Below are positions 12,688-32,899 of a DNA stretch of 64,000 nucleotides, in pieces. Positions within the stretch are counted from its first letter, which is position 1. Each line of letters starts with the position of its first letter. The DNA is from a virus (taxonomy: Duplodnaviria; Caudoviricetes), in IMG/VR virus record IMGVR_UViG_2912464834_000002; one strand, 5' to 3'. The notes below the pieces were generated by a model. It had not been told where the DNA came from. It worked only from the letters and a program-made list of their open reading frames with translations, and did not search any database. The position numbers and the translations under genes are program-made.

Positions 12688-12704
12688 CATTTCCGGGGGG
12701 ATGA

Positions 12705-13702: not shown

Positions 13703-13738
13703 CGCGCCAGTTTTCGATTTTTGGAAATTTCGCAATCC

Positions 13739-13763
13739 AGCCTGGCCGCGCGCCGGGCTTTTT
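13739..13763 (+). terminator. Intrinsic terminator
   Basis: AGCCTGGC-CGCGC-GCCGGGCT followed by T4. Confidence 0.65.
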
Positions 13764-13779
13764 CATTTCTGGACCAGAC

Positions 13780-14415: not shown

Positions 14416-14417
14416 CC

Positions 14418-14612: not shown

Positions 14613-14654
14613 CCACATGCCGCGCGCCGCGGCACCACTCCTGAAGGATCCTTC

Positions 14655-16239: not shown

Positions 16240-16257
16240 AAGGGCAGCGACTATTGC

Positions 16258-16473
16258 TCAAACTACGAAGGGATGCGCCATCGTAATAGCGTGAGAAGCC
16301 TCCAGATGGCGGATGACCTCATCTATCAACTTGCTTAGTTCCGTTTCGATTTCTTCGCCGCTCATAGAGCGCAGCAGGCCCAAATTACGGGCAGCAGAGT
16401 CTATCTCTTCCTTTGTTATCCGGAGGAAGGGGTGCAACTGATCGGGGCGACGCAGATCGTTGTTCGAGGTCAT
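16258..16473 (-). CDS. Hypothetical protein (lower-GC accessory gene)
   Basis: 71-aa ORF with GAGA-type RBS, convergent with the lipase. Confidence 0.5.
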   Translation of the reverse strand: MTSNNDLRRPDQLHPFLRITKEEIDSAARNLGLLRSMSGEEIETELSKLIDEVIRHLEASHAITMAHPFVV

Positions 16474-16593
16474 TTATATGGTCTCTCGTTCAATTGTGGA
16501 AGTTGCTCAATTAAGCTGTAAGGGATTCTACACGGCTTCTATGCTGCGCCGGCTTGGAGCGCAAGAGCGATGCGGGATACCGATTGCACTTGC

Positions 16594-16827
16594 TCAGAAG
16601 TAGCGCTGGGCGAGCAGGTCGCAGGCTTCGTCGTCGAACCCCATCGCGTGCACTCACCGGCTGCACCCATGATTCGGGTTCGAGCGCATCGGCACGCATT
16701 TCGAGCAGGTACAATGCGCGATGCCCGCTCCAGGCTCGGCGGTGCCTGCCCAGTGCTCGCATGTCCAGCACGTGCGCGTGACCGTGCGAACGTGCAGGCC
16801 AATATATCCGCCACCGTTCTTTTCCAT
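16594..16827 (-). pseudogene. Small Cys-rich protein interrupted by an in-frame TGA
   Basis: CWTCEHW...C...GCSR*VHAMGFDDE; stop at 16654-16656 falls where a Trp (TGG) is plausible. Confidence 0.5.
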
Positions 16828-16841
16828 GATGCGAAACAATG

Positions 16842-16857
16842 CTGTATATATATACAG
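16842..16857. promoter_or_regulatory. LexA (SOS) box
   Basis: CTGTATATATATACAG, a perfect CTGT-N8-ACAG. Confidence 0.85.
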
Positions 16858-16880
16858 TGTATCGCCGCTTCAGGCCAAGG

Positions 16881-17960: not shown

Positions 17961-17967
17961 GGTCCCC

Positions 17968-18006
17968 GGTGCTACGCGGCAAAAATCGGAGCTACATCGT
18001 AGCACC
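17968..18006. repeat. Putative integrase arm-type sites
   Basis: GGTGCTACG (17968), GGAGCTACA (17988) and inverted CGTAGCACC (17998). Confidence 0.45.
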
Positions 18007-18080
18007 ATAGCCAAAATATTCTCAATTTTCCTACGGGATTCTCAGGAATTCTGCGCCGCCGATAGAGAGTTAAGTGTCTG

Positions 18081-19121
18081 ATGTTTCAGGAAAATTCAAT
18101 AAAATCAACGGGTAGGCGTGTTTCGGTGGCCCCGATGCTCGACTGGACCGACCGTCATTGCCGTTCGTTCCACCGGACGCTGACGCGCGATACGTGGCTG
18201 TATACGGAGATGATCACGACGGGCGCGCTGTTGTTCGGCGATGCCCAGCGGCATCTTGCGTTCACGCCGAACGAATCGCCGGTCGCGCTGCAGTTGGGCG
18301 GCAGCGAGCGCGACGATCTGGCGCGCGCGGCGAAGCTCGGCGAGCAGTGGGGCTACGACGAAATCAACCTGAATTGCGGATGTCCGTCCGAGCGTGTGCA
18401 GCGCGGCGCGTTCGGCGCGTGCCTGATGAACGAGCCGCAACTCGTCGCGGACTGCGTGAAGGCGATGCGCGATGCGGTGTCGGTGCCGGTTACGGTCAAG
18501 CACCGGATCGGTGTCGACGCGGTCGAGGACTACGCATTCGTGCGCGACTTCGTCGGCACGGTGGCCGAGGCTGGCTGCGAAACGTTCGTCGTGCATGCAC
18601 GCAATGCGATCCTGAAAGGGTTGTCGCCGAAAGAGAACCGCGAGATCCCGCCGCTCAAGTACGACTATGCGTATCGGTTGAAGCGCGATTTTCCTTCGCT
18701 CGAGATCGTCATCAACGGCGGCATCACGACGCTCGACGAGGTTGCGCAGCATCTCGAGCATGTCGACGGCGTGATGCTCGGCCGCGAGGCGTATCACAAC
18801 CCGTACGTGCTCGCGGAGGTCGATGCACGCTTCTATGGATCGACGGCAGCGACGCCGACGCGCGAAGAGGCCGAGGCGAAGCTGATCGAATACTGCGCGG
18901 CCGAACTGAAGCGCGGCACCTACCTCGGCGCGATCGTGCGGCATGCGCTCGGACTGTATCGCGGGATGCCCGGTGCACGTGGCTGGCGTCGTGTGCTGTC
19001 GGACAACAAGAAGCTTGCACGCGGCGATCTGGCCGTGTTCGACGAGGCGCGCGCGCATCTGAACGAGGCCGAAGAAGTTTTTGAAAAAAAAGCTTTGCAA
19101 GATTCAAAAGTGTTCGTATAA
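18081..19121 (+). CDS. dusA: tRNA-dihydrouridine(20/20a) synthase DusA
   Basis: VAPMLDWTDRHCR, NLNCGCPS.RVQ.G.FGACLM, GLSPKENREIPPL. Confidence 0.96.
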   Translation: MFQENSIKSTGRRVSVAPMLDWTDRHCRSFHRTLTRDTWLYTEMITTGALLFGDAQRHLAFTPNESPVALQLGGSERDDLARAAKLGEQWGYDEINLNCGCPSERVQRGAFGACLMNEPQLVADCVKAMRDAVSVPVTVKHRIGVDAVEDYAFVRDFVGTVAEAGCETFVVHARNAILKGLSPKENREIPPLKYDYAYRLKRDFPSLEIVINGGITTLDEVAQHLEHVDGVMLGREAYHNPYVLAEVDARFYGSTAATPTREEAEAKLIEYCAAELKRGTYLGAIVRHALGLYRGMPGARGWRRVLSDNKKLARGDLAVFDEARAHLNEAEEVFEKKALQDSKVFV

Positions 19122-19341: not shown

Positions 19342-20367
19342 TTACATGCCTCTTCGCTTTACGATTTTCGTTCGATCGTAGACGCGCGCCGTCGTCGCCG
19401 GATTCGCATGCAAGTCCGGCAATGCGCCGCGTTCCGCCTTATGCCGCGTCACGTAATACGCGCGCAGGTCGTGGAACGTAAAGCGCCTCCCGATCTTCTT
19501 CAGCTCCAGGGCCTTGCTCATCAGCTTCGACCATTCGGTCTTGAAGCCGGCCGGCGTGTAGTGCGTCGCGTATCGATTCGAGAACACGTATAGGCAGTCG
19601 TCCTTGCGAGCAGCGCGCAGGCGCGCGATCAGTTCGGTCAGAGCGGGCGTGATCTCGATATGCTCGATCACCTCGCCGCGTTTCTTGCCGCGCTGCTTCG
19701 CGCGCTTGACGCGGATCTCGCCGGCGGCTTCGTCGATCTGAGGCCACGCGAGATCGAGAAACTCGACCTTCCGGTTGCCCGCCAGCGCCGCATATTCGGC
19801 GGCCATGCCGATGACCGCCTTTTGTCCGCCGAGCGACGCTACCCAGGCGGCGAACGACTGGAAGTCTTCCGGTTCGGGTGCTTCGGTGCGCGGCTGCTCC
19901 TCGTTCCGACGAACCTCGCGACAGGGGTTATGCTTGGCCTCGCCGCGGTCGATCGCCAGACCGATCAGGTTCGAAAGCAGCGCAACCTCGCGGTTGGCGC
20001 GCACCGGCGCGGCTGCGCGCTCGATGCGCAGATAGCGCGAGACGTGTGTCGCGTCGATGTCGGCGGCGCGCATGTCGCCGAACGTTTCCAGCAGCGGCCC
20101 GCTGCATTGCTTGTAGTCGTTGCGCGTGTACTGCGAGTAGCGCTGCCATCCGGGCGTCTCCTGGAACTGCTCCCATAGCCGCGCGATCGTGCCAACGTCG
20201 TCGCCGGCGCCGAGCAGGTCGAGCACCTTGCGTATTGCGACGAGCCGGTCCTGGCCGAGGTTGATCGGCTTCTTCCCGACCGGGTGATAGCGGTACGTGA
20301 AGCCTTCCTTCCGTTTCCGCGCCTCCATGCGCGGCAGGAGGCCATCACGTTCCCGGTGCTTCTTCAT
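19342..20367 (-). CDS. int: Tyrosine integrase
   Basis: ANRE.ALLS, GNRKVE, FTFHDLRA, LH....T.RVY; start re-called at 20367. Confidence 0.92.
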   Translation of the reverse strand: MKKHRERDGLLPRMEARKRKEGFTYRYHPVGKKPINLGQDRLVAIRKVLDLLGAGDDVGTIARLWEQFQETPGWQRYSQYTRNDYKQCSGPLLETFGDMRAADIDATHVSRYLRIERAAAPVRANREVALLSNLIGLAIDRGEAKHNPCREVRRNEEQPRTEAPEPEDFQSFAAWVASLGGQKAVIGMAAEYAALAGNRKVEFLDLAWPQIDEAAGEIRVKRAKQRGKKRGEVIEHIEITPALTELIARLRAARKDDCLYVFSNRYATHYTPAGFKTEWSKLMSKALELKKIGRRFTFHDLRAYYVTRHKAERGALPDLHANPATTARVYDRTKIVKRRGM

Positions 20368-20570
20368 GCTGCGACTCTCCATTTCGGCTGCGCGCGCGGC
20401 GCGGCTTCGGCGCGCGGGCGGTTGACCTGCTCCCACGTCAGCATGGGATGCCCGTCAGCCTTTCGCGGCGCGTCGATGCCGAGTGCTTTCTTGATCCACC
20501 GGGCCTGCGCCGCACCCTGTTTCAGGCCGCCCGTCAGCTCGACGAGCTCGTCATTGGTCACGATTGGCAT
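20364..20570 (-). CDS. DUF4224-like excisionase/RDF
   Basis: ELVELTG....AQARW....GI....ADG.P; ATGA overlap with int. Confidence 0.75.
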   Translation of the reverse strand: MPIVTNDELVELTGGLKQGAAQARWIKKALGIDAPRKADGHPMLTWEQVNRPRAEAAPRAQPKWRVAA

Positions 20571-20572: not shown

Positions 20573-21586
20573 CTACACCTCCGGGAATTCGTCGTGCGTA
20601 CGGCCGTCGAGGTGGCGGCCGGCGGCGCGCTTTCCGACCTTGGTAAAGTGGTGGTTCGCCGCGAAGCGGAAAACTGGCTCACGAGCTGGTGTCGTCCCGC
20701 ATCCGCGGATAGCCGTGCCATTCGGCTCGACAGGCAGCCATTCGCCCCATTGCTTGAACAGAAACGGCACGCCGTAGGCCGTGCACTGGTCGCGAAGATC
20801 TCGGGCCCAGCCGGGATGCATCGGCCGCGCGCCGGGGCCGCTTTCGCCGCCGACGATCACCCAGTCGAGTCTGGGCGAGCTGTACCCCGAACCGTCGTCG
20901 GCATATTCGGTGGTCGGCCCGTGGATCCATGGCGCATCGGCAGGGCAGTCTTCGCAGGACTGCATTTCCCGCATGCAGCAGACACCCGTTGGATCGAACC
21001 AGGCTCGAAGATCGACCGGCCCGAGCAGCGGCTCCATCGATAGAAACCGGCGGCGCGCCGGCGTCATGAGAAGCTTTTCGATGTCGCGATCGGCCTCGAC
21101 CTGGTCGACGATCGTCGCGCCGAGCGAGACACCCGGCCAGGGTAGCTCGTCCCACGTGTTGATCCCGCACGACAGCTCGTCGACGACTTCGTTTAGCATC
21201 GCGTGCGCGTTGCCGATCCGCTTCGTCAAGAGCAGCCAGTCGAGGTTCGGCGTCTTGGCGATCAACCTGAACAGGTCGACGCGCCATGCCGGATCGACGG
21301 CGTTGTCGAACACGTCAGCAAGCGACGCGCAGAATACGCGCTGGCGCCGGCCGTGCGCGGCGAAAAACTCGGCATGTGCCTCTTCCCATGCGAGCGGCTT
21401 GCGCCAATTCGCCTGCGACGTGCGGCGGCGCGGCGCGCCGGGCCCCCAGTTCACGGCCGTGCCGCCGGCGAAGCGCGCGTTACGCGTCTCCGCGTAGCAG
21501 TGGTCGCAGCCCGGGCCGATCTTCTGGCAGCCTTCCCACGGGTTGAAGGTGTGGTCGCACCATTCGATTTTGGTGTTCTCGCTCAC
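20573..21586 (-). CDS. Phage Gp37/Gp68 (DUF5131) family protein
   Basis: TKIEW.DHTFNPW.GC..IGPGCDHCYA, WLLLTKR, FLSMEPLLG, WVIVGGESG, FKQWG. Confidence 0.9.
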   Translation of the reverse strand: MSENTKIEWCDHTFNPWEGCQKIGPGCDHCYAETRNARFAGGTAVNWGPGAPRRRTSQANWRKPLAWEEAHAEFFAAHGRRQRVFCASLADVFDNAVDPAWRVDLFRLIAKTPNLDWLLLTKRIGNAHAMLNEVVDELSCGINTWDELPWPGVSLGATIVDQVEADRDIEKLLMTPARRRFLSMEPLLGPVDLRAWFDPTGVCCMREMQSCEDCPADAPWIHGPTTEYADDGSGYSSPRLDWVIVGGESGPGARPMHPGWARDLRDQCTAYGVPFLFKQWGEWLPVEPNGTAIRGCGTTPAREPVFRFAANHHFTKVGKRAAGRHLDGRTHDEFPEV

Positions 21587-22341
21587 GATGCGTCTCCTGC
21601 GCGGGCGGTGTCGTACTTGGCTTTGGCTTCGCGGTAGTGTTCGTCGCAGCAGAAGCCTTGGCCCATCCAAAGCGAGGACGACGGATTGCCGCAGAAGCAG
21701 GACGGCATGGGGTTCGCCTGGTTTGCGTTGAACCAGAACTGAGCATGCTTGCCGTGCGGCGCGTCGAAATCGGGGAGGTGGCCCGGACCGGCCAAGGTAT
21801 TGACGATCCAGCTCAGGCCCGCTTCAGCGCCGTTGCCGTGCTGCCACTCGATAACGGCGGACTGCATGGCAACGGTTTGGTCGTGGATGATGTCCGACAG
21901 CGTCTTGATGAGAGACTCCGACCGCACGACGTCGCGCGTCTTCTGTTCTTCACGCTTCAGACGCTCGCGCATCGATTCGTGCTTCTTTTCGCGCACATAC
22001 AACGCGACTGGACCGTCCTCGGTGTCGTAGATTTCGAGTAGGAGCCAGCCGTCGCCGGCCGGCGCGCTCGGCGTCCAGAAGCTGCAGTTCGCACTGTTGG
22101 ATGAGAAGTACTGGTCATACGTGTCGCAATCGACGTCGTTCTCCATATGGATGAACGCGGCTTCGATACCGAACGCAGCGAAGAACGTCTCGTAGTTCAC
22201 ATCCTCGTCGAGGTACGGGACGGCGGGGTGCGACAGCATGCCTTCCTCGTCGCGCACGATCTCGCGCGGCGTGAGAATCGCGCGGCGCAGCCCCTGGAGG
22301 TCGGCCGGCATAGCGGCGCGCGGGGTATCGGTGGTGGTCAT
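21583..22341 (-). CDS. Hypothetical phage protein
   Basis: 252 aa, translationally coupled on both sides. Confidence 0.7.
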   Translation of the reverse strand: MTTTDTPRAAMPADLQGLRRAILTPREIVRDEEGMLSHPAVPYLDEDVNYETFFAAFGIEAAFIHMENDVDCDTYDQYFSSNSANCSFWTPSAPAGDGWLLLEIYDTEDGPVALYVREKKHESMRERLKREEQKTRDVVRSESLIKTLSDIIHDQTVAMQSAVIEWQHGNGAEAGLSWIVNTLAGPGHLPDFDAPHGKHAQFWFNANQANPMPSCFCGNPSSSLWMGQGFCCDEHYREAKAKYDTARAGDAS

Positions 22342-22733
22342 TGTTCCCGGCCCTCCATGTCGGCAGCGGTGATGACATACTGGCGCACATTGACGACGCT
22401 GTAGAACGTCGGCTTCGCGTGCTTCTCGATCCAGCCGGCCAGCAGCGCATCGAGTTCGGCCCTTGCTTCTGGCATGACGTCCGGGTAGCCGTCCGCATAT
22501 TCGCCGACCTCGTCGTAGGCACGATTGCCCATCGTGTCAATCACGTCGTCCGCATCGCACAGATACTTGATCGAGATGGGTTCAACATCTCCGACGTACA
22601 CGACGTCGCCGATGGCGAGGTCCTCGTATGTGTCGAGCAGCTCATCGAGCTCGTCACACGTGAAATCCTCGTTGTTGCGGCTCCAGACGACGCGCACATC
22701 AGCTGCCTGGCTGTTTTCGGTTTGGGTGGTCAT
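22338..22733 (-). CDS. Hypothetical acidic phage protein
   Basis: 131 aa, GAGGAG RBS after the RT stop. Confidence 0.7.
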   Translation of the reverse strand: MTTQTENSQAADVRVVWSRNNEDFTCDELDELLDTYEDLAIGDVVYVGDVEPISIKYLCDADDVIDTMGNRAYDEVGEYADGYPDVMPEARAELDALLAGWIEKHAKPTFYSVVNVRQYVITAADMEGREQ

Positions 22734-22743
22734 GGGACACTCC

Positions 22744-23889
22744 TCAGAAGGTTCTCGTGAGATCGCGATCGACGGCTTTACCCAGCGAACGCAGAAGGTT
22801 CGCGAGGCTCGCGCGATCGTGGTGGCTGGCGGTTGCCTGCCGCAGCAGGCCGAAATACGAATTCGCGACCGGCATCAGATCGCCGGCTGGTGTCTCGGCG
22901 ACGCGCCGCAGGGCTTCGTTGCGCGTGCGTTTCCGCGTCTCGCGACGCCATGGCTTGATGACCTGACCGACGAAGTCGATGCCGCGGTCAATCGGCTGGA
23001 GGATGGTTTTGCGCGGGTTGATCCGCGCGCCGAGCTGCGTGGGCAGGAACGCGGTGACGTCGGCGAGGATCGCGTTCAAGCGCGCCGGCGACTCGTGCAG
23101 GAACACGAAATCGTCGACGTACCGGATGTAGTGCCGCGCGCGGAGCACATGCTTCGCGCGCTGATCGAGAACGTCGAGGTACACGTTCGCGAAGAACTGG
23201 CTCGACAGGTTGCCGATCGGAAGGCCAAGGTGCTCGGCTTGTTCCATCAGGCGCTTGTGCGGCGGCACGAGCTCGATCATTGCCGGGTCGCCGTGGTGTT
23301 CGAAGTCGGCCCGTGGATCGTGCATCAGCACGCGCTCGGTCAGCGCACGCCAAAACGGCTCGGAGATCTTCGCGAAGAGCAGGTCGAGCAGGATGCGCTT
23401 GTCGATGCTGACGAAGAAGTTCGCGAGATCGCACTTCAGGTAGAACGCGCGACGCGACCAGTTCTGCGTGATCGATCGCACCTTCGCTTCGAGGCGCTGC
23501 GCGGCGTATAGCGTGCCGCGGCCCTTGATGCAGGCGCATGAATCGGCGATGAAGGACCGCTCGAAGCTCGGGCCGATCCGGTTGTAAAGCAGGTGGTGCA
23601 CGATGCGATCGCGAAATGCGGCCGCCCAGACTTCGCGCGGCTTCGGTCTCGTGATGACGAAGCATTTCGAGCGGCCGGGTGTGTAACTGCCTTCGGCCAG
23701 CTCGTCGTACAGGCGTCGCAGGTTGCGTTCGAGCCGCATTTCGAACGCGAGCGCTGCATTGCTGTTTCGCTTCGTTCGCCGGCAGTCGAGATACGCTTCG
23801 ACCAGCTCGGCGAACGAAAATGGCCCTCGATCTGCGGACGGCTCGGGCGCGCAACTCGTTGTTCTGGTGGTTGTTGTTCTGGTTGCCAT
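22744..23889 (-). CDS. DGR reverse transcriptase
   Basis: KPREV.AA.FRDRIVHH, GLPIGNLSSQFFANVYL (DGR GxxxSQ signature), YIRYVDDF, GIDFVG; start uncertain, nearest in-frame ATG is 23889. Confidence 0.93.
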   Translation of the reverse strand: MATRTTTTRTTSCAPEPSADRGPFSFAELVEAYLDCRRTKRNSNAALAFEMRLERNLRRLYDELAEGSYTPGRSKCFVITRPKPREVWAAAFRDRIVHHLLYNRIGPSFERSFIADSCACIKGRGTLYAAQRLEAKVRSITQNWSRRAFYLKCDLANFFVSIDKRILLDLLFAKISEPFWRALTERVLMHDPRADFEHHGDPAMIELVPPHKRLMEQAEHLGLPIGNLSSQFFANVYLDVLDQRAKHVLRARHYIRYVDDFVFLHESPARLNAILADVTAFLPTQLGARINPRKTILQPIDRGIDFVGQVIKPWRRETRKRTRNEALRRVAETPAGDLMPVANSYFGLLRQATASHHDRASLANLLRSLGKAVDRDLTRTF

Positions 23890-23920
23890 TGTTGAAGTTC
23901 TGGTACCACGCCCAGCCGGA
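23830..23920 (-). repeat. DGR template repeat (TR)
   Basis: TCCGGCTGGGCGTGGTACCAGAACTTCAACAATGGCAACCAGAACAACAACCACCAGAACAACGAGTTGCGCGCCCGAGCCGTCCGCAGAT; nine AAY codons. Confidence 0.95.
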
Positions 23921-24082
23921 GGTATCGTGCGATCTACGTCGCCCGACCGATTTCTCAGTCGGGAAACTGCGCTGGACCTTTCCGCACGCCGGCGGCCGGT
24001 TTCCTCATTGCGCATGGCGGTGGCTTTGTGAGCCAGCGGCACGGCCAGATTGATATATCGCTCAGCCGCGAAGGCCTTGACC

Positions 24083-24439
24083 TTAGCGGAGCGGGCGACG
24101 GTTTGCGGCGTTCTTCCAGCCTGTGGCCTGCTTCCCGATGCTCGTCGTCTTCTCGACGGCAGCTGCGTAGCCGTCACGTGAGATCAGGCGCTTGTCCATA
24201 CTGAGACGAAGCAGCAGCTCGATCACCTGCAGACGCTCGAGCAATTCGACGAGGTGCGGAGCCTTGTCGGCCGCGACGTTCGCGCGGAACACCAACACCA
24301 TGATCTCGATGCACTCCGCGTTGATCTTCTCGCCGATGCTGCGCTTGAAGTCGCGGGGCATGTTCTTGACCAAAGTGGTGACATCATCGAGCAGCCCATA
24401 GGCCGCTCGATATATCGGAAGTTGGTTGTGCAGGGCCAC
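24083..24439 (-). CDS. avd: Accessory variability determinant (Avd-like four-helix bundle)
   Basis: 118 aa, LPIYR..Y.L, PRDFKRSIGEKI, IGKQ..GW; lies between targets and TR. Confidence 0.85.
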   Translation of the reverse strand: MALHNQLPIYRAAYGLLDDVTTLVKNMPRDFKRSIGEKINAECIEIMVLVFRANVAADKAPHLVELLERLQVIELLLRLSMDKRLISRDGYAAAVEKTTSIGKQATGWKNAANRRPLR

Positions 24440-24453
24440 GGCGGGTTAAATAA

Positions 24454-24918
24454 TCAAAAAACTGAAGGGATAAATCTGCGGACGGCGCGGGCGCGCAACT
24501 CGCAGTTCTGGCGGGTGTTGCGCTGGGTGCCATGGCTGAAGTCCTGGTACCACGCCCAGCCGGAGTTCGATTCGTGGCGTTCACCGGACCAGTAATAGGT
24601 CGGCTCGAACTCGGCCTTCAGGTTCGCGAACAGGAGCGATTGCTCCCGCCGCGTCGGCAGTTCGCCGCCACGTTCGGCGGCCCACGTCTTCGCCGCCTCC
24701 CAATCCAGATCTTCGGCTTCCCCCGGCAGGAGAATCAGGTAGTGGCTCAACGAGCCGTCTTCGAGAAGGATCTGCCCGGCGATGCGCTCGCCGGCAGCGA
24801 GCGGGACCGTGACGGCGTCGACGTAGTACTCGGTCGCCCGCGGTTGCTTCTTGAACTCGTCGATCATCGCGCCGATGCGCGCGTGATCTGCTTCAATCTG
24901 TTCGAGCGTGATCGTCAT
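24454..24918 (-). CDS. DGR target 1, DUF1566/CLec-like protein
   Basis: W..A..WA...GG.LPTR.E, YWS, AW...F..G...LRARAVRR; C-terminal VR. Confidence 0.9.
   Translation of the reverse strand: MTITLEQIEADHARIGAMIDEFKKQPRATEYYVDAVTVPLAAGERIAGQILLEDGSLSHYLILLPGEAEDLDWEAAKTWAAERGGELPTRREQSLLFANLKAEFEPTYYWSGERHESNSGWAWYQDFSHGTQRNTRQNCELRARAVRRFIPSVF
24474..24564 (-). repeat. Variable repeat VR1
   Basis: 11 mismatches to TR over 91 nt, all at TR adenines. Confidence 0.95.
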
Positions 24919-24948
24919 TGCATGCTCCGATTGTGAATGGCTGAAGGG

Positions 24949-25311
24949 TTAAATCGACAATCTGCGGACGGCGCGGGCGCGCAACTCGCTGCTCTGGAGG
25001 TCGCCGTACTGGAAGCCATTGGCGAAGTACTGGGACCACGCCCAGCCGGCGAAATCCGGGTCATCGTCCGGCGTGTTCGACCAGTACGCAGCCTTCTCGA
25101 ACAGGTCGCGGTGCTGCTCGTATGCGATCACGAGCTCGGCGCGCGTCGGCAGGTCTCCACCGCGGCTCTTGGCCCAGTCCATCTGTTCCTGCCACGTCCC
25201 GCGATCGTTCTCGCCGGGCAGCAGGATCGTGTGCGTGACGTCGCCATTCCTGTCGACGAAGCCGCCGAGGTAGACCTCGCCGTCGGCGAGCGTGGGAAGC
25301 TGGATCTGCAT
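24949..25311 (-). CDS. DGR target 2, DUF1566/CLec-like protein
   Basis: 120 aa from ATG 25311 (GGAGA RBS); same motifs as target 1. Confidence 0.9.
   Translation of the reverse strand: MQIQLPTLADGEVYLGGFVDRNGDVTHTILLPGENDRGTWQEQMDWAKSRGGDLPTRAELVIAYEQHRDLFEKAAYWSNTPDDDPDFAGWAWSQYFANGFQYGDLQSSELRARAVRRLSI
24960..25049 (-). repeat. Variable repeat VR2
   Basis: 14 mismatches to TR over 90 nt, all at TR adenines. Confidence 0.95.
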
Positions 25312-25320
25312 GGTTTCTCC

Positions 25321-25352
25321 GGAAAAGAGAAGGGCGCCGATTGGCGCCCTTC
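25321..25352 (-). terminator. Terminator-like hairpin directly upstream of the DGR cassette
   Basis: Minus strand GAAGGGCGCC-AATC-GGCGCCCTTC-TCTTTT. Confidence 0.65.
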
Positions 25353-25400
25353 GAATGCCGCGCGGACCGAGGTATGCCGCGCGGGATAGGCTCTGTTGAA

Positions 25401-26024
25401 TCAGCGGGGCATCCACTGCGTGCCGCGCACGATCCGGCCGACTGGTTCGAGCACGAGCACCTCGGATTCCTTCTCGCTGCGCACGAGTGCGCTGCCGCGA
25501 CGCTGGGCTTTCTCCAGCGATTCGTGGCGTTGCGGCTTGCAGTTGCGGCCGACCGTGACGAACAGCGGCGCGCGTGTGCCGACCGGGCCGAGCGTCAGCT
25601 CGTCGATGCGGGCCTCGAGAGCCGCGGCGTTCGCTCGCCAGGTGTCGGCTTTCTGCTGCGCGGCGTCGCGCTCGGCCGCGAGGCGTTCGACGTCGGCGCG
25701 CAGGTCCGCGATGACCCGTGCAACGTCGATGACGCCTGCGTTCGGGTCCAGCGACTTATCGATCAGGCCGACCGATGCCAGCGCCGGCGCGGCTGCGGCC
25801 GGCGGCGTGTCGCCAGGCGGCGGGGGCGCCTTCACTGCGCGCGCGAGCCAGTACACGTACTCGTTGCCGCCGCCCGCGCGCTTCTCACGCTCGACCAGCC
25901 CATCGCCAAGCATGCGGTTCAACTCCTTCGTCACGTCGAGCTGCGGAAGCCCGGTTCCGGTCGCCACGGCCTTCGCCGTGGCTTCCGACGTATCAGCGAG
26001 ATACCGCTCGATGTCCTCTCTCAC
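25401..26024 (-). CDS. Hypothetical protein, N-terminal winged helix plus coiled coil
   Basis: ATAKAVATGTGL....VTKELNRM..DGLVER. Confidence 0.65.
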   Translation of the reverse strand: MREDIERYLADTSEATAKAVATGTGLPQLDVTKELNRMLGDGLVEREKRAGGGNEYVYWLARAVKAPPPPGDTPPAAAAPALASVGLIDKSLDPNAGVIDVARVIADLRADVERLAAERDAAQQKADTWRANAAALEARIDELTLGPVGTRAPLFVTVGRNCKPQRHESLEKAQRRGSALVRSEKESEVLVLEPVGRIVRGTQWMPR

Positions 26025-27787
26025 GCTGCCTCCCGTACGGCGCTTGGCGCGGTGGCGCTGACCCGTCCATCCTCGACCCAGAACGCCTCGATGCCTTCGG
26101 GTAGCCCAGTGGGTGGCGTTTTCAGGCTCATGAACACGAGCGCCATGTCGACCTGGTCGGTGTATGCGAGGTCGTCGAGCCAGTACAGCAGCCGGTCACG
26201 CTCCGGCCCGACCAGCACATCGGCGCGATCAAGGACGAGCAGTTTCAGGCCCGAGAAGTGGCTGATCGCTGCGGCGATGTGCGCGTCGGCGCGCCAGCGT
26301 TCCGATTCCGACAGTAAGGCGTACGCACGACCGTTCGCGAGGATCTCCATTTCCGGCGTGATCGTGACGTCGGCCCATTCAGACAGCTCGGCGAGCGCGG
26401 TCAAGCGCTCATTCATCGGGGTCAGCGCTTCGCGCAGTAGGTCGGCCGGAATTCCGTTCGGCGCCAGCGCGTCGGCGATTGCTTCCCAGACGGCCACGTC
26501 CTGATACAGCGCGAAAGCCTTACCCGTGATCTCGATTGCGGCGGCGGCGCGGCGCTCGGCGTCGCATGCGGCCGCGATGTCCGTATCGAGCTGCGTGCGG
26601 CGTTGCATCAGCGCGCCGAGCTCGCGGCGCGCCGCGTCGATCGCCTCGCCCGATGAGTCGCCAGCGCCGGCAGTCGCTTCGTTCTCCAGGTCCTTCAGCT
26701 GCTTCGCCGCCGCGTCAGCGGCTTCAAGTTCCGCGCGGCGATTGCGGGCGGCGTTCTGCAGCACCGTGAGGCTGCGCTCGTACTCGGGCAGTTTCGCGAT
26801 CGCTTCATCATCGCGCGCGCCGGCTGCGGCGGCGGCCGTGAGCGCGCCATGCAGGAAACGCAGCAGCGCGCCGCATTCCGGGCAGCTGCATTCCGTGCCG
26901 GCCGGCACGGCGCCGGCGCGCACGCGCATTGCATCGACCTGCGGCTGGAACTCCGCGAGCTGGTCGTCGGCCAGCTGAGCCAGCTCGGCGGCTTTCGCGT
27001 AGCCGGATGCCTTGTCGCGCAGCGCGGCGATTTTCGAAGCGCGGGCGCGCGCGGCGGCTTCGCCGGCCTCGGCCGCGCCGATCTGGCGCTGCAGCTCGCC
27101 GACGTCGCCGTCGAGCGACGCGCGCTCGCCTTCGAGCTTGCGCAGCGCCGCCGTGTCGAAGTTGACCGGTGCCGGTCGCCAATCCGCGGCCTTCTGGCTG
27201 CCGTACGTTTCACCGGTCGTCGCACGCCATGCCTGCTTCGCGCCGCGCGCGCGATCCGCCGCTTCCTTCTGCGCGGCCTCGAAACCGGCGCGCAGCATCG
27301 GCGTGATCGCCTCGAGCTGGGCGTCGACGGCGAGCCTGATCACGCGGGCCGGAGACGTCAGCTTGTCGACCAGCCGCGAGCGAATTTCCTGGGCACCGAT
27401 CTTCACGCCCATCAATTCATACAGGAACGCGCGGCGCGCAGCGGCGTCGAGCTGCGCGAAGCGCTGCGCGTCGAGCACCAGCGGAAGGCGCGGATCTTCG
27501 GCGAGCTCGCGCTTCAGCTTACCCGACGGCAGCATGACGCTGTTCGCCTGCTCGCCGCACGCGACGACGATCTGACCAGCGTCCGAGCCTTCGGTGACGA
27601 GCGAGCCGTATTCCTTCTTCAGCGCGACGCGCACGGTGTCCCCGGTGAGCGCCATACGCACGGCTTCCTGCAGGCTGCTCTTGCCGGCGCCGTTCGGGCC
27701 GGCGAAGAGTGCGACGGGTTTCGACAGCCGCAGGTCCGCGGCGTGGATCCCGAGCACTTTCGAGACGTAGATGTCGGTGATCTTCAT
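26021..27787 (-). CDS. SbcC/Rad50-like coiled-coil ATPase
   Basis: Walker A GPNGAGKS, CPEC hook, LSESE signature, LLVLD. Confidence 0.85.
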   Translation of the reverse strand: MKITDIYVSKVLGIHAADLRLSKPVALFAGPNGAGKSSLQEAVRMALTGDTVRVALKKEYGSLVTEGSDAGQIVVACGEQANSVMLPSGKLKRELAEDPRLPLVLDAQRFAQLDAAARRAFLYELMGVKIGAQEIRSRLVDKLTSPARVIRLAVDAQLEAITPMLRAGFEAAQKEAADRARGAKQAWRATTGETYGSQKAADWRPAPVNFDTAALRKLEGERASLDGDVGELQRQIGAAEAGEAAARARASKIAALRDKASGYAKAAELAQLADDQLAEFQPQVDAMRVRAGAVPAGTECSCPECGALLRFLHGALTAAAAAGARDDEAIAKLPEYERSLTVLQNAARNRRAELEAADAAAKQLKDLENEATAGAGDSSGEAIDAARRELGALMQRRTQLDTDIAAACDAERRAAAAIEITGKAFALYQDVAVWEAIADALAPNGIPADLLREALTPMNERLTALAELSEWADVTITPEMEILANGRAYALLSESERWRADAHIAAAISHFSGLKLLVLDRADVLVGPERDRLLYWLDDLAYTDQVDMALVFMSLKTPPTGLPEGIEAFWVEDGRVSATAPSAVREAA

Positions 27788-27799
27788 GGGAGGTTCCGG

Positions 27800-28858
27800 T
27801 TAGTCGGCGCTGATCGGCCCGCGTGCGCGGCGCGGCGCACCGGCTCGCGGCTGTTGCTGAGCCTGTTCGGCAGCCGCGGTGATGGCACGCATGCGCGCCG
27901 ATGCCGCCGCGTTCAGGTCCGCCTTCGCGGCCTCGTCCGGCACACCGGCGATCGCGCTGCGCGCGAGGTCGAGGTCCTCGGCAGTCGCCGCGGACTCGAT
28001 GTCCTCGCGAATGCCGCGCACCAGGCCGTCGACGTCGAACTCAAACCCGCCTTGGCTCTGGCCGGCCTCGCCGCGAGGCTCGTCCTGGTCGTCGACCCGA
28101 TCGGCTCGGGTAGCTGCCGGTGGCGCGTCGGCCGCGCGCGAGTCCGTCGCGGGACCGGTCTGCGCCGGCTCGGCGCCGCGCGGTACTTCCTCCGCAGGTT
28201 GCGCGCGGCCGTTGCGCAGCTCTTCGAGCGTACTAGTCACTGCAACCGAGCCGTCGGCTCGCACTTCGACGGTATCGATCAGTTCTTCCTGTGACGAAAG
28301 TCCCATGCTGATCTCGGGGGCGTAGGCCCGCTGCCAGAACGCGGCCGAGCGATACACGAACATCTGGTCGGGCATCGTGAGCCACTTACTGCCGCTCTTC
28401 TTGTTCCAGCCTTCAGCCTTGACCATCTTCCAGTCGATCCAGGTGCCGTTCAGGCGCTCGCCAGTCGACTTCTCGATCGTCCATGCCCGACAGCCGAAGT
28501 CGTCACTGCCTTCGGTGCCGCGCCATTCGTAGCGCAGCGTCTCGAACCGGCCGCATGTGTTCACGCTGGCGATCAGGAACTTGCTCGACCAGCCGGGGTT
28601 GCCGTGGACGATGTATAGGTTCTGCATGACCATCAGCTCGTCGGCGCCGAGGCGGCGCGCGAGATTCAGCGCGATCATGCAGTTCGCGACGTTGTTCTGG
28701 TAGTGAGCGGGGACCAGCGACGAAGACGCGAAAGCCTTGGCGACGCGCTGCAACAGCTCGAAGCCTTGAAGATCGAAGAAGCCCGCGCGAACAGGCGGCA
28801 GCGATGCCTCGCGCGGCGCGGGATTGCGGATAGCTTCCAGGGTGGTAGGCGTGGACAT
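27800..28858 (-). CDS. RecT-like single-strand annealing protein
   Basis: LVP..YQ....NC.IAL, VMQNLY.VHG.PGWSS, W..MPDQM..YR...FW.R; start re-called. Confidence 0.7.
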   Translation of the reverse strand: MSTPTTLEAIRNPAPREASLPPVRAGFFDLQGFELLQRVAKAFASSSLVPAHYQNNVANCMIALNLARRLGADELMVMQNLYIVHGNPGWSSKFLIASVNTCGRFETLRYEWRGTEGSDDFGCRAWTIEKSTGERLNGTWIDWKMVKAEGWNKKSGSKWLTMPDQMFVYRSAAFWQRAYAPEISMGLSSQEELIDTVEVRADGSVAVTSTLEELRNGRAQPAEEVPRGAEPAQTGPATDSRAADAPPAATRADRVDDQDEPRGEAGQSQGGFEFDVDGLVRGIREDIESAATAEDLDLARSAIAGVPDEAAKADLNAAASARMRAITAAAEQAQQQPRAGAPRRARGPISAD

Positions 28859-28872
28859 GGAGATCTCGCGGG

Positions 28873-29682
28873 TTAATCGTGGAACTGGCAGGTGCCGTGG
28901 CGCGGGCAGTACTTCTTGTCGCACAGCAGCGATTTCGGGTTAGGGTAGAAGCGGCCGGACCGGAACATGTCCGCGGCGAACTGGATCAGCCCCGGCGTTT
29001 CCTCGGTGCCGACCATCACGCGCTTCGAGTTCGCGATCGGCGCGGTCGCGACTTCTGGCGTGCCCTTCGTTTTCAGGCCGATGATCTCGGCGGTGTCGCC
29101 GATTTCCTCGCCGGTCGTGTGCTCGTACAGCAGCTCGTATGTGCCGATCTGCGGGCCGTGCCCCTTCGTGACGGCCGCGCCTTTCTGGACTGCGGACGAT
29201 CCGCTCTTCAGGTCCGCGATGCCGACGCCGGCCGCCGAGCGGCGCACGCGCGCGCGATCCATCGTGCCTGTCAGGCGCACGATGACGCCGCCGCCGCAGT
29301 CGATTTCGAGCGGCTTCGTTTCCATCTCGACCGCGACGAAGTTGTAGCGCGGCGCGACCTCGAGGCAGTACTTCGTGGTCAGCGACAGGCCGATGCGTTC
29401 CGCGTCGGACATGCTCAGGTCGTCGCGCTCCGGATCGAACTCGTTCTCGGGGTCGCGCAGCTTGTCGACGAACGCGCCGGCCGCATCGTCGACGGTCAAG
29501 CCCGAGCCATCGAGCCGCGCCTGGTCGAACACGGCCGTGCCAGCGTGAATCGCGGTGCCGAGCGCGGCACGCAGGCCGACCACGTTGCGCATATTCAGGA
29601 GGTGGATGCCCTCCCAGCGGTATGCGCAGTCGAAGAGTGCGCCCCAGCTGGACGCGCGGACGGTGTAGACGGATGGGTTCAT
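28873..29682 (-). CDS. PD-(D/E)XK exonuclease (RecB/Cas4-like)
   Basis: GTAIH, GTMD, DLKSG, Q..TY; one N-terminal Cys plus C-terminal CDKKYCPRHGTC. Confidence 0.85.
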   Translation of the reverse strand: MNPSVYTVRASSWGALFDCAYRWEGIHLLNMRNVVGLRAALGTAIHAGTAVFDQARLDGSGLTVDDAAGAFVDKLRDPENEFDPERDDLSMSDAERIGLSLTTKYCLEVAPRYNFVAVEMETKPLEIDCGGGVIVRLTGTMDRARVRRSAAGVGIADLKSGSSAVQKGAAVTKGHGPQIGTYELLYEHTTGEEIGDTAEIIGLKTKGTPEVATAPIANSKRVMVGTEETPGLIQFAADMFRSGRFYPNPKSLLCDKKYCPRHGTCQFHD

Positions 29683-29846
29683 CAGGTTCTCACGAGGTTG
29701 GCGACGGCGCTGGTGCCATCGGCATTGAGGGCGGCGACGGCATACATGCACGCGGCGGCGATCAAGCTCGCGACGATGTAGCTGACGACTGGACTGCGCG
29801 CGTGGATGCGTTCGAGCAGCGCGCCGAGGAAATCGAAGGGAGTCAT
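29682..29846 (-). CDS. Small membrane protein
   Basis: 54 aa MTPFDFLGAL..., one TM segment; coupled overlaps. Confidence 0.55.
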   Translation of the reverse strand: MTPFDFLGALLERIHARSPVVSYIVASLIAAACMYAVAALNADGTSAVANLVRT

Positions 29847-30028
29847 CCGAGGCTCCGCAGGTAGGGGCCGGCGACCAGCGAGCCGTACCAGAGGGCCGCG
29901 ATCGCGACGCCGTAGGCGGCCATCCATGCGCCGGCCTCGGCAGCGCGGCGCAGGCGCGGCGCGCGCGCGGCGACGCGCAGTAGCGCGTTGTCGGTCGGCG
30001 CACGAGGAAGCGTGAGCGTGCGCATCAC
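29843..30028 (-). CDS. Small membrane protein
   Basis: 61 aa with hydrophobic C-terminal half. Confidence 0.55.
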   Translation of the reverse strand: MMRTLTLPRAPTDNALLRVAARAPRLRRAAEAGAWMAAYGVAIAALWYGSLVAGPYLRSLG

Positions 30029-30354
30029 AGACCCTCTCCGCAGACGCGCACGTGCCGCACGGGGTCAGCGACCGGGACAGGTGCCGAGTAACCGGCCTTG
30101 CCGAGCGCGGCGTCGACGACGGCACGGATGCCGGACGTGAGCACCGTTTTTGAGGCGACGAGTCGCAGCGCCGTGACGATGTCAGGCGCCGCTGCGATCA
30201 GCTGCGCGCGCGCCTCAGATTGTTCGCCCGTGCCGAGCACGATGCAGATTCGTTCGTCTTCGCCGAGCACGACGATGCAGTTGCCGTCGTAGTCGAGGTA
30301 ATCGCCGGGTTCGCACGCTTCCCACGGCCCTTGCGGATGGTTGGTCTGTCCCAT
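30025..30354 (-). CDS. Hypothetical phage early protein
   Basis: H..GPW...ARAQLIAAAPD motif common in phage early genes. Confidence 0.7.
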   Translation of the reverse strand: MGQTNHPQGPWEACEPGDYLDYDGNCIVVLGEDERICIVLGTGEQSEARAQLIAAAPDIVTALRLVASKTVLTSGIRAVVDAALGKAGYSAPVPVADPVRHVRVCGEGL

Positions 30355-30379
30355 GTGGTCTCTCGGTGTGGTGTGCGGC

Positions 30380-30487
30380 TCAGCCGCGGTGGTGGTCGTC
30401 TCGGCCCTTGTCCTTGATCGCGATGGCGATTTCGACGACGAGCCAGAAAGCGAGCAGCGCGAGCGCGCCGATAACGAAGCGGGCCAT
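30380..30487 (-). CDS. 35-aa single-TM peptide (not in ORF track)
   Basis: MARFVIGALALLAFWLVVEIAIAIKDKGRDDHHRG; starts 1 nt after the upstream stop. Confidence 0.5.
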   Translation of the reverse strand: MARFVIGALALLAFWLVVEIAIAIKDKGRDDHHRG

Positions 30488-30488
30488 G

Positions 30489-30914
30489 TCAGATCCCGCT
30501 CAAGAGGCGCAGGCCGGCCGCGCCGTGGTCTGCGCAGTGGCTGACGCCAGCGTTGCCGGGACCGAGTTCCGCGCCGCATGCTGAGCAGGTCGTCTGCGCG
30601 AAGCGCGGTGCGGCGGCGGCGAGGTCGGCGGCGGCGATACGACGCGCGATCTCGGCGGCGCGCGCGGCGACGAGGATGCCCCAGACCGTGTACACGTCCT
30701 CGATGCGGCCGCGTGCCAGCGCAGCGTCGATCACCGCGCAGTCGGTCGTCGAGATCTCGAGCCTGTCGAATGTGACGCCGTCGGCGATTTCTTCGTTGCG
30801 CTCGTCGCGCGCCAGCGCCGCATCGTCGGCCGCCGCTTGTTGTCGATCGGCGCTCGCATCCTTCCGTGCCGGGAGGGTGCGGACGCTTCCGCCCGTGGAG
30901 TTGTTCAGATGCAT
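30489..30914 (-). CDS. Hypothetical protein with C-terminal CxxC..HCxxH motif
   Basis: CSACG...SHCADH; GGAGG RBS. Confidence 0.65.
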   Translation of the reverse strand: MHLNNSTGGSVRTLPARKDASADRQQAAADDAALARDERNEEIADGVTFDRLEISTTDCAVIDAALARGRIEDVYTVWGILVAARAAEIARRIAAADLAAAAPRFAQTTCSACGAELGPGNAGVSHCADHGAAGLRLLSGI

Positions 30915-30947
30915 CGCACCCTCCATGCAGTTGAAATGGACGAAGGG

Positions 30948-31328
30948 TTAAATCGACAATCTGCGGACGGCTCGGGCGCGCAACTCGTCGTCCTGGCGGT
31001 AGCCGTCCTGGTAGCCAAGGTCGAAGTACTGGCACCACGCCCAGCCGGCGTAGCCCGGGTCCGTGTCGGGTTGGTTCGACCAGTAGGCGTCCGGCTCGAA
31101 CTCGCCGCGATGGTTTTCCAGCAGGAAGAGCATCTCGATGCGCGTCGGCAGGTCGCCGCCGATCGACTTCGCCCACTCCATCTGCGCCTGCCAGCTGGCG
31201 TCGTCGTTGTCGCCCGGAAGGAGCACGACGTGATTCTGTTCGCCGGCCGTGTTGGTGACGATGCCGACGTAGATCTCGCCCTCGGCGAGCTGCGGAACGG
31301 AAACAGCGGTGGGGGTGGGCGCGTTCAT
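30948..31328 (-). CDS. DGR target 3 (remote), DUF1566/CLec-like protein
   Basis: 126-aa paralog of target 2, with C-terminal VR. Confidence 0.9.
   Translation of the reverse strand: MNAPTPTAVSVPQLAEGEIYVGIVTNTAGEQNHVVLLPGDNDDASWQAQMEWAKSIGGDLPTRIEMLFLLENHRGEFEPDAYWSNQPDTDPGYAGWAWCQYFDLGYQDGYRQDDELRARAVRRLSI
30959..31048 (-). repeat. Variable repeat VR3
   Basis: 13 mismatches to TR over 90 nt, all at TR adenines. Confidence 0.95.
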
Positions 31329-31658
31329 AGAAACTCCAGAAAGGAAGAACTACTAAGTAAATTGAAGTGTGAAACGGCAAACGGTGCTTGCTGCTGCAGC
31401 TCTCACCGGTGGCGCCTCGAAGAACGAACCGCCGCCGGTCAGAACTGCTTTCACTCGCGCGCCCGGCTACTCCCGGCCGTGCCGGCTCCGGGCCGCGCGA
31501 GGTTGTGTGCCGATTACCACGCCATCGGTCACGTGTTGCTGGCTGTCTTGCATCAGGCTCACTCGGCGCACAGCGGTCTTCCGCTAAGTCCGTCCTGACT
31601 CACGACGCTGATCGCGCCGGCCGGTTGCTCCGCAGAAGCGGTCCCGGCTTACCTTCGA

Positions 31659-31671
31659 TTGTTAGAGAGCG
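31659..31671 (-). promoter_or_regulatory. boxA-like antitermination site
   Basis: Minus strand CGCTCTCTAACAA versus boxA GCTCTTTAACA; about 45 nt downstream of PL. Confidence 0.6.
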
Positions 31672-31718
31672 ATCCGCCTGGGCGGTGGCGCAGCGCGTTG
31701 TGTGCTGCGTTGGGAAGG

Positions 31719-31763
31719 ACTTTAGCGAAACGCGAAAGTTGTGTCTATAGCGAAACGCGAAAG
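31719..31763 (-). promoter_or_regulatory. PL promoter with two operators
   Basis: TAGACA-17-TAAAGT on minus strand; operators CTTTAGCGAAACGCGAAAG (31720) and CTATAGCGAAACGCGAAAG (31745). Confidence 0.8.
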
Positions 31764-31826
31764 TTTTGAGGAAAATTTGTAACAGCCTTGCTGGTTGCGG
31801 TTTTCCCGCATGTCTGCTGACGACAG

Positions 31827-31873
31827 TTGAAAGGTCGTCGAGTCTGGAGATAAACTACTGTACATGCATACAG
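31827..31873 (+). promoter_or_regulatory. Promoter with LexA box
   Basis: TTGAAA-18-TAAACT, then CTGTACATGCATACAG (31858-31873). Confidence 0.7.
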
Positions 31874-31903
31874 TGTTTGTGACGGAGAAAAGCGAGGTCG
31901 GGG

Positions 31904-32194
31904 ATGAGTCGAGAGGCGAGCGGGATGAAGCTGCGGTGCAGGGCAGGCGATACGGCGAGGGTGGTGCACTCGTCGAATGCATCCCTCATCGATAGGATTG
32001 TCACGGTCGTGCAAATGCACGAAGACGGCCGGTGGGAATGTGAGCTTATCGGCCGATCCGTGTTGGGATGTGCGGATGACGGGGAAGGACTGATTTTGAC
32101 CCGAGATTGGCTGTTCTCGGATGCGTATCTCGAGCCGCGGCTCGACGCGCGGGACGCAACGTCAGTTCCCTTTGCCGAACCGCTTCTTTGCTGA
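31904..32194 (+). CDS. LexA-controlled small protein (antirepressor candidate)
   Basis: 96 aa downstream of the SOS box, convergent with the repressor; function inferred. Confidence 0.55.
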   Translation: MSREASGMKLRCRAGDTARVVHSSNASLIDRIVTVVQMHEDGRWECELIGRSVLGCADDGEGLILTRDWLFSDAYLEPRLDARDATSVPFAEPLLC

Positions 32195-32560
32195 TTGCGC
32201 GTCGTCAGCGGACGTAGGCTGCGTCAAAACCCATCCAATGAACGATTCCACCTGCGCCCGCTGAGCTGGATTCAATTTCCCCCAGCCGGCTGGCACATCA
32301 GCAGGGATCGTGGCCGACGTTGTCACAGAATGGTCTGTATCGATCCAACCTACGGCTTTTCCGAGGTTGTCTTCAATTTTCCGGGCGGTCGCAGCGCGCA
32401 TGCCCCGCGGCCGGCCGGTCTTTGAATCCTTGGCGCCGTCTCGCAAGTTCGTGAACTGGGAATGAGACATCCCGCAAGCTGCCGCAGCAGCTGACGGTCC
32501 TCCGTACTCGGCCTCGATAAGCCGGAGGTTGTCCCGGCGGATTTCGTCGATGTCCTTCAT
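32162..32560 (-). CDS. CI-like repressor lacking a peptidase domain
   Basis: IRRDNLR.L, HTH, ARKIE..LG...GW.D; 132 aa; divergent from cro. Confidence 0.8.
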   Translation of the reverse strand: MKDIDEIRRDNLRLIEAEYGGPSAAAAACGMSHSQFTNLRDGAKDSKTGRPRGMRAATARKIEDNLGKAVGWIDTDHSVTTSATIPADVPAGWGKLNPAQRAQVESFIGWVLTQPTSADDAQSAKKRFGKGN

Positions 32561-32570: not shown

Positions 32571-32639
32571 CAATAGCAAAACGCTAAAGGCGTATATGCG
32601 CGAAACGCTATAGACTTTCCTTTCGCGTTTCGCTAAAGT
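32571..32639 (+). promoter_or_regulatory. OR operators (three) and PR promoter
   Basis: 19-bp sites at 32571, 32595 and 32620 (consensus CTTTAGCG-AAA-CGCTAAAG); TAGACT-17-TAAAGT at 32611-32639. Confidence 0.8.
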
Positions 32640-32644: not shown

Positions 32645-32899
32645 ATGGACCTGAAAACCTACCTCTCCGCCGAGCGCGGGCGACTTGTCGCACTCAGCCG
32701 GGCGATTGGCGCTCATGCGTCAGACGTCAGTCGCTGGTCGAGCGGCGAGCGCCCCATCCCGATCACGTTCGGCTTGCCGATCGAGCGGGAGACTCATGGT
32801 CTCGTGACGAGGCTCGAAATGTTTCCGAGGCAGGTCATCGAACGTGTCTGGCCCGACCTGATTGAGCAGGCCAAAAAGCGACCGAAGGAGGCGAAGTGA
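32645..32899 (+). CDS. Cro/YdaS-like regulator
   Basis: LSRAIG....VSRW..G.RPIP.....IERET.G.VTR..WPDL. Confidence 0.85.
   Translation: MDLKTYLSAERGRLVALSRAIGAHASDVSRWSSGERPIPITFGLPIERETHGLVTRLEMFPRQVIERVWPDLIEQAKKRPKEAK

Follow-up and report, generated by a model that had tools for sequence, protein, structure and literature searches.

Diversity-generating retroelements (DGRs) are, to our knowledge, the only natural system of targeted protein hypermutation in prokaryotes, and the textbook role of a phage DGR is receptor switching. The model element of the phage BPP-1 is arranged as mtd-avd-TR-brt and has a single target, Mtd, a 381-amino-acid trimeric fibre-tip protein encoded in the tail module; the functional non-template part of its RNA (Sp) is located 3' of the template repeat (TR). 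Here we describe a DGR at positions 22744-31328 of a 64,000-nucleotide stretch of viral DNA (Caudoviricetes; IMG/VR record IMGVR_UViG_2912464834_000002), referred to below as the window. The element has one TR and three variable repeats (VRs) and is almost certainly a genuine DGR with three live targets. Its likeness to the BPP-1 element lies in the order target, avd, TR and reverse transcriptase (RT), the adenine-specific mutagenesis, the AAY-rich TR, a C-terminal variable domain of the C-type-lectin fold, and a GC-rich repeat end that is common to TR and VR. It differs in that the targets are three stand-alone proteins of 120-154 amino acids encoded in the early arm, in the presence of a conserved Rfam RT-15 RNA 5' of the TR, and in the lack of a hairpin after the VRs.

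The host of this DGR is a temperate myophage resembling phage Magia, integrated in a Burkholderia cepacia-complex genome, with homology to Magia starting at 19206. The DGR of Magia (MT701587; genes 44-47 and 57) is the closest described element, with 86.7% nucleotide identity over 91% of window positions 22000-32000. Both phages share the order target 3, recombination genes, terminator, target 2, target 1, avd, TR, RT and integrase, and they differ in the tail fibre region and the immunity region. In the publication of the Magia genome (Microbiol Resour Announc 2021, PMC7883833), the authors pointed to a potential DGR whose targets are encoded by short reading frames. They flagged genes 47 and 57 alone as targets and studied neither function nor activity. 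Gene 46 of Magia, the orthologue of our target 1, was found to be a third, unflagged target, as its VR carries eleven mismatches that occur only at adenines.

In the survey of Wu et al. 2018 (PMC5758913), category d comprises targets of the DUF1566/DUF823/Fib_succ_major type with CLec2 VRs and accounts for 14% of DGRs, about half of its members being short DUF1566-only proteins. Several targets occur in approximately 15% of DGRs, and non-adjacent targets exist. The VRs described here are likewise placed at the C-terminus of a DUF1566-type domain. The category exemplar, LdtA of Legionella, is an exported surface lipoprotein whereas the three targets in the window have neither a signal peptide nor a lipobox. 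The original prediction had proposed this locus as the best candidate for an undescribed system in the window. That proposal is not borne out, since short DUF1566-only, multi-target and non-adjacent-target DGRs were all catalogued in the same survey, and the element is typical of its class, which, like this type of target, had already been catalogued. Placement in a phage early operon is not discussed in the survey. Structural and non-structural targets of viral DGRs have been distinguished by Roux et al. 2021, and cytosolic variable recognition proteins have been the subject of speculation by Belalov et al. 2023 (PMC10053308). Our literature search found no paper that tests what small DGR targets of early operons do.

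The components of the element are listed below.

22744-23889, minus strand: DGR reverse transcriptase gene (Pfam RVT_1, 1.9e-14; IGNLSSQ and YVDD motifs), start uncertain
23830-23921, minus strand: TR, 92 nucleotides, with 27 adenines and nine AAY codons
23918-24100, minus strand: structured RNA, Rfam RT-15 (RF03018), 161 bits against a gathering score of 82, E 1.5e-39
24083-24439, minus strand: avd accessory gene, 118 amino acids, four-helix bundle (Pfam bAvd, 50.6 bits, cut-off 40)
24454-24918, minus strand: target 1, 154 amino acids, a C-type-lectin/DUF1566-like domain with an N-terminal extension of about 45 amino acids
24474-24565, minus strand: VR1, in target 1
24949-25311, minus strand: target 2, 120 amino acids, with ATG at 25311 and a GGAG ribosome-binding site
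24960-25051, minus strand: VR2, in target 2
30948-31328, minus strand: target 3, 126 amino acids, the remote target and the first gene after the leftward promoter and leader
30959-31050, minus strand: VR3, in target 3

The TR reads SGWAWYQNFNNGNQNNNHQNNELRARAVRR. Compared with it on the minus strand, VR1, VR2 and VR3 of the window carry 11, 14 and 13 mismatches respectively, and all 38 of them fall at TR adenines (19 A to G, 10 A to T and 9 A to C). Outside this set, a single T to G difference occurs in VR2 and another in VR3, each at the extreme 5' edge of the homology. The probability of obtaining adenine-only mismatches by chance is negligible, as only 27 of the 92 TR nucleotides are adenines. 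The TR and three VRs that had been predicted are thus present, and both the count and the types of the adenine mismatches were reproduced; the predicted Avd, and the RT with GNLSSQ and YVDD motifs, were also recovered, the motifs by reading the translation and both proteins by matches to their Pfam families.

Each VR ends 10-22 nucleotides before the stop codon of its target, and the final 27 nucleotides of every VR are identical in the TR. The 3' flank of every VR begins with T and contains a CCTTC-type motif, and most TRs run on as CGAGGG; we infer that the VR-specific flank acts as the initiation of mutagenic homing site (IMH), as opposed to IMH* at the TR. No GC-rich hairpin or cruciform was detected after the VRs, as folds of 111 nucleotides across each VR end were not better than shuffled sequences (z +0.5 to +1.0). 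A hairpin of this kind is missing from most DGRs (Wu et al. 2018, PMC5758913). A candidate hairpin 3' of the TR (23746-23830, z -1.9) was set aside as unproven; it has one compensatory pair only across the nine elements compared below, and it lies inside the RT coding sequence.

The RT open reading frame is open over 22744-24177, and its translation contains the IGNLSSQ and YVDD motifs, which correspond to the DGR-type [LIV]GxxxSQ and YxDD. Within 23739-24177, the interval from the TR end to the conserved N-terminus of RT (FSFAELVEAYL...) contains no in-frame ATG, GTG or TTG, and the only in-frame ATG upstream of this N-terminus is at 23889, within the TR. Existing annotations treat this start in different ways: the RT coding sequence of Magia is stretched across the TR, and those of vB_PL1 and QDWS start downstream and cut the conserved N-terminus. 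DivGenRetAVD is the top NCBIfam match of avd, with a score under its cut-off. The RT-15 RNA lies immediately 5' of the TR and overlaps the avd stop, and its placement is identical in five further cassettes (six of the six tested).

Nine related elements were compared, namely two in this genome, those of the phages Magia, vB_PL1 and 'Shewanella' QDWS, and those of four other Burkholderia species genomes. A match was found in seven of 94 representatives of other Burkholderia species. The second cassette of this genome lies 48.4 kb upstream (genome assembly C1:2584671-2587265), contains target 2, target 1, avd, TR and RT, and hence has two targets; it is about 90% identical over 2.6 kb. When the 22 VRs of the nine elements were each compared with their own TR, 261 of 579 adenine sites were found changed and none of the 1379 other sites. 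Non-adenine differences between the TRs of distinct elements recur in all cognate VRs, the remote third VRs included. Such copying of private TR substitutions into every cognate VR indicates that retrohoming was recent.

TR position 78 provides an example. It is a private A in this prophage, where VR3 has A and the genome assembly has A in VR1 and G in VR2; in the sister cassette the position is C in the TR and in both VRs. The shared targets of the two cassettes differ at 14 of 27 and 13 of 27 adenine sites, at one of 65 and none of 65 non-adenine VR sites, and at 22 of 373 and 40 of 271 scaffold sites (6-15%). To judge from these comparisons, the repeats have evolved in concert by retrohoming after the elements diverged, target 3 with its private A78 included. 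The element is a complete and recently active DGR, and its retrohoming may be ongoing, the comparative evidence for this being strong.

Selection is also visible, both in the codon pattern of the VRs and in the scaffold. Adenines of CAG and GAG codons are altered in 0-1 of the 22 VRs and those of AAY codons in 6-21 of 22, and codon changes in the target scaffolds are mostly synonymous. Among 35 orthologues of target 3, adenine codons have an entropy of 1.77 bits, compared with 0.05 bits for the remaining VR codons and 0.36 bits for the scaffold.

The alleles of VR1 and VR2 in the window require a comment. The window and the genome assembly differ at 76 sites, all within 23963-25034 (avd, VR1 and VR2), and at all 76 the window has the allele of the upstream cassette. 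The equivalents of this patch in the genome assembly are C1:2634295-2635366 for this prophage and C1:2585890-2586961 for the upstream cassette. One switch point is located inside the TR (23843-23963) and the other at the VR2/target 2 scaffold (25034-25156), both in stretches that are identical in the two copies, which suggests either a phase swap between assembly versions or gene conversion between the co-resident prophages. By the alleles at TR position 78, the phasing of the genome assembly is the self-consistent one. With its alleles the VR counts become 12, 12 and 13, again all at adenines, and the DGR finding survives under either phasing.

The start of target 2 is the ATG at 25311 and not the upstream GTG, and gp47 of Magia has an equal length. 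The targets are acidic and without conserved cysteines or a hydrophobic N-terminal segment. No signal peptide, lipobox or transmembrane segment was found in any of the three, and no 15-residue hydropathy window exceeds 1.22. The view that the targets are stand-alone single domains without a signal, already put forward in the original prediction, agrees with their lengths (154, 120 and 126 amino acids), with these hydropathy values and with the lengths of their relatives: 1447 relatives are of similar length and 14 are longer (about 99% stand-alone), and the best 150 of 1476 cluster representatives are mostly 100-220 amino acids long.

The only Pfam family matched by the three targets is Lcl_C/DUF1566 (PF07603), with scores of 21.4-24.4 bits, below the cut-off of 34.9. 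For many close homologues a PF07603 match has been precomputed and the NCBI name is DUF1566, and two relatives pass the cut-off with 39.8 and 43.8 bits. The AlphaFold model of target 3 has a mean predicted local distance difference test (pLDDT) score of 68, falling below 50 across the VR. With VIA-align, the top 50 structural matches of this model are all C-type-lectin-like domains (Z 4.0-6.7). The best bacterial match among its structural matches is the C-terminal domain of Legionella pneumophila Lcl (PDB 8q4e; PF07603; Z 5.4 over 95 residues, 19% identity), a secreted collagen-like adhesin that, unlike the targets here, is not diversified by a DGR. A Foldseek search of the same model against the PDB gave no match at E <= 0.001, its list agreeing weakly with the C-type-lectin fold, and a sequence-profile search of solved structures gave chance-level matches only. 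Each target is predicted to be a single C-type-lectin-fold domain of the DUF1566/Lcl_C type, with the nine AAY codons placed on the ligand face.

Two kinds of unusual relatives were noted. One metagenomic contig encodes a 373-amino-acid protein in which an SNF2-related N-lobe (Pfam, 53 bits) is fused to a target-type lectin domain, ahead of avd and RT; this may be a genuine fusion to an intracellular enzyme or an artefact of a cassette inserted into a helicase gene, and we regard it as a hint only. Other relatives occur in arrays of small early phage genes, either fused to Lar-type restriction-alleviation domains or in their vicinity, and the contigs concerned contain no RT.

The genomic position of the targets is described with the following additional features.

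19342-20436, minus strand: tyrosine integrase at the end of the leftward arm (phrog_1, 4e-37), the left prophage end being near 19206
25329-25352, minus strand: intrinsic-terminator-like hairpin with a 10-bp stem, 8 GC pairs and a T-rich tail, 18 nucleotides before target 2
25401-30003, minus strand: early recombination block between target 3 and the cassette (winged-helix regulator, SbcC/Rad50-like ATPase, RecT and PD-(D/E)XK nuclease)
31719-31768, minus strand: promoter-like site TAGACA-17-TAAAGT under two copies of a 19-bp palindromic operator
32162-32560, minus strand: phage repressor (phrog_12107, 3e-49, and phrog_35)
32645-32899, divergent from the repressor: Cro-like gene (YdaS/Cro-like Pfam match)
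57023-60724, plus strand: tail fibre genes of 535 amino acids (57023-58630) and 528 amino acids (59138-60724), with a 178-amino-acid assembly-like protein

Along the minus strand, the repressor is followed by the promoter and operators, a leader of about 390 nucleotides, target 3, small genes, and the genes for the nuclease, RecT, the SbcC-like ATPase and the winged-helix regulator; after the terminator come target 2, target 1, avd, the RT-15 RNA, the TR, RT, accessory genes and the integrase. A third copy of the operator is found at 32620-32638, on the opposite side of the repressor gene, giving three operator matches where none were expected. The terminator-like hairpin divides the recombination genes from the DGR cassette, and Magia has an annotated terminator at the equivalent place. 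A sub-threshold Rfam match to BjrC68 at 25322-25396 was rejected as being merely the terminator hairpin. The targets had been predicted to belong to a leftward early and recombination operon, and this placement holds, as the arm is controlled by the repressor and contains RecT, the nuclease and the integrase.

The whole 8.6-Mb genome was searched with the TR and the three target proteins, and no TR-like or target-like sequence was found beyond the two prophage cassettes. The fibre genes, as had been claimed, therefore carry no VR, and no target paralogue was found in them either. The accompanying claim that the targets lie more than 25 kb from the fibre is true on the prophage map and fails in the phage genome of Magia, where the distance from the fibre gene to RT is about 9 kb.

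The position in the early arm recurs among related cassettes. In Magia, vB_PL1 and QDWS, the cassette is found in the same arm, between RecT/exonuclease and a methylase, a Gam-like gene and the integrase; in one metagenomic phage and in the sister prophage it follows an S24-type repressor gene of the same strand at a distance of 1-2 kb, and further sampled contigs also have the cassette in this arm. Distant relatives that were sampled blind occur in arrays of small early genes or ahead of YqaJ/RecT, and none of the sampled contexts has a relative of the targets beside tail genes. The second cassette of this genome belongs to a different myophage-type prophage, arranged in near-tandem, whose late genes occupy window positions 1-19000. 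Beyond the cassette, the similarity between the two prophages is confined to a tail-fibre C-terminus, an endolysin and an HNH gene (59978-62460 versus 11895-14422, 87-91% identity).

The targets carry no export signal and no domain for attachment to a fibre, and their genes lie outside the late operon. A site of action off the virion is most likely, whether within the infected cell or once lysis has released the proteins, and their role would be that of variable binders. The best overall explanation, and in our opinion a fairly probable one, is a recently active three-target DGR whose targets serve off the virion as variable binders of a changeable ligand. After the BPP-1 model, an RNA with the RT-15 structure and the TR would be reverse-transcribed by RT and Avd with misincorporation opposite template adenines, and the resulting complementary DNA would replace the last 90 or so nucleotides of the three paralogous genes. 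From the gene architecture, all three targets would be silent in the lysogen, target 3 would be made first after induction or infection, and the DGR cassette would be read only when the terminator is overcome. An early role away from the virion is, taken by itself, just about favoured.

Several observations weigh against this explanation. The early timing is read from gene architecture alone, and the circular phage genome puts the cassette only about 9 kb from the fibre gene. The Lcl_C matches of all three targets lie under the Pfam gathering score, the model of target 3 is only moderate (pLDDT 68) and every single fold match is middling. A post-VR hairpin of the BPP-1 type was not found, and the VR1 and VR2 alleles of the window may be mis-phased. 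Finally, the tail type was readable in three carriers (Magia, the sister prophage and QDWS); all three are of the baseplate or sheath type, so independence of the cassette from tail type could not be shown.

These baseplates, together with the short distance to the fibre genes in the excised genome, are among the points in favour of tropism switching as in BPP-1, where the small lectin domains would be associated with the virion, docked non-covalently on the fibre or baseplate, and serve in host recognition. Every experimentally characterised phage DGR varies a receptor-binding protein, surveys place most viral targets in tail structures (PMC8144416), and PHROG 4245, a phage family of 583 positions, has a target-type domain at its C-terminus. 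We nevertheless consider tropism switching rather unlikely here. The target genes are on the opposite strand, in a repressor-controlled early arm with RecT and the nuclease and not in the late operon. The present targets do not fit the Mtd type, in which a tail-fibre or receptor-binding protein is encoded in the tail module and brings its own N-terminal domain for attachment; they have no N-terminal attachment or trimerisation domain and no similarity to any fibre gene, and nearly all of their relatives stand alone. In addition, the absence of tail genes next to target relatives in the sampled contexts, and the sharing of the cassette by two prophages whose tail modules are unrelated except for the fibre C-terminus, both argue against a role on the virion.

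A role on the lysogen side, with the targets made in the lysogen by read-through or from an undetected promoter as variable sensors or decoys that exclude superinfecting phages in a DGR-based immunity like that put forward by Belalov et al. 2023, is less probable again. Cytosolic VR-bearing proteins for pathogen recognition have been proposed (Belalov et al. 2023, PMC10053308), the location past the S24-type repressor in the sister prophage and the metagenomic phage is that of lambda rexAB, and the interval between RT and the integrase holds a DUF5131 gene (a PADLOC candidate-defence family) and a DpdH-like gene. On the other hand, the promoter ahead of target 3 is covered by operators, which should keep this gene repressed in the lysogen; a strong terminator precedes the cassette, and the 18 nucleotides before target 2 hold no promoter-like site; and a PADLOC search of the three targets found nothing. 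That the element is a decaying relic, in which the TR/VR pattern is historical and homing has ceased in this prophage, is very improbable, as the unclear RT start codon is set against an RT reading frame intact with its catalytic motifs, an intact Avd, the high-scoring RT-15 RNA, the private allele of TR position 78 in the cognate VRs, and the lack of any TR/VR mismatch outside adenines despite the divergence between the two cassettes in their scaffolds.

Returning to the off-virion reading, the intracellular anti-defence binder that was originally proposed would be compatible with where the genes lie and with the absence of an export signal from their products, although a role specifically against host defences or competitors is doubtful. 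Somewhat more doubtful still is the generalization that temperate phages of many proteobacteria keep DGR-varied small cytoplasmic lectin-fold binders, made as the first early proteins upon infection or induction, that neutralise variable host defence proteins or competing phages; if true, this would be an antibody-like form of counter-defence, distinct from receptor switching. Should the targets act inside the cell, the known uses of DGRs in phage-host conflict would be widened. A large and recurrent class of phage DGRs is aimed at tiny, signal-less proteins of the early operon, and the present locus offers a tractable model of it, since the related phage Magia has been cultured and the private TR markers of the two cassettes record homing.

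Two minor observations concern the records compared and the neighbouring genes. 'Shewanella phage vB_Sb_QDWS' (OK094664) and 'Hujiaoplasma phage zrk29-1' (OP650936) are both 47,902 bp long and carry a cassette with about 87-88% nucleotide identity to that of the Burkholderia prophage; with this equal size and closeness, their host assignments look doubtful, and the two may be the same phage or a contaminant. Between RT and the integrase (20573-22733, minus strand) lie genes for a DUF5131 protein (PADLOC PDC-M41B and PDC-M30B, E 1e-46), a protein with a DpdH-like segment and a phrog_1672 protein, which make this a typical region of accessory or defence-type cargo.

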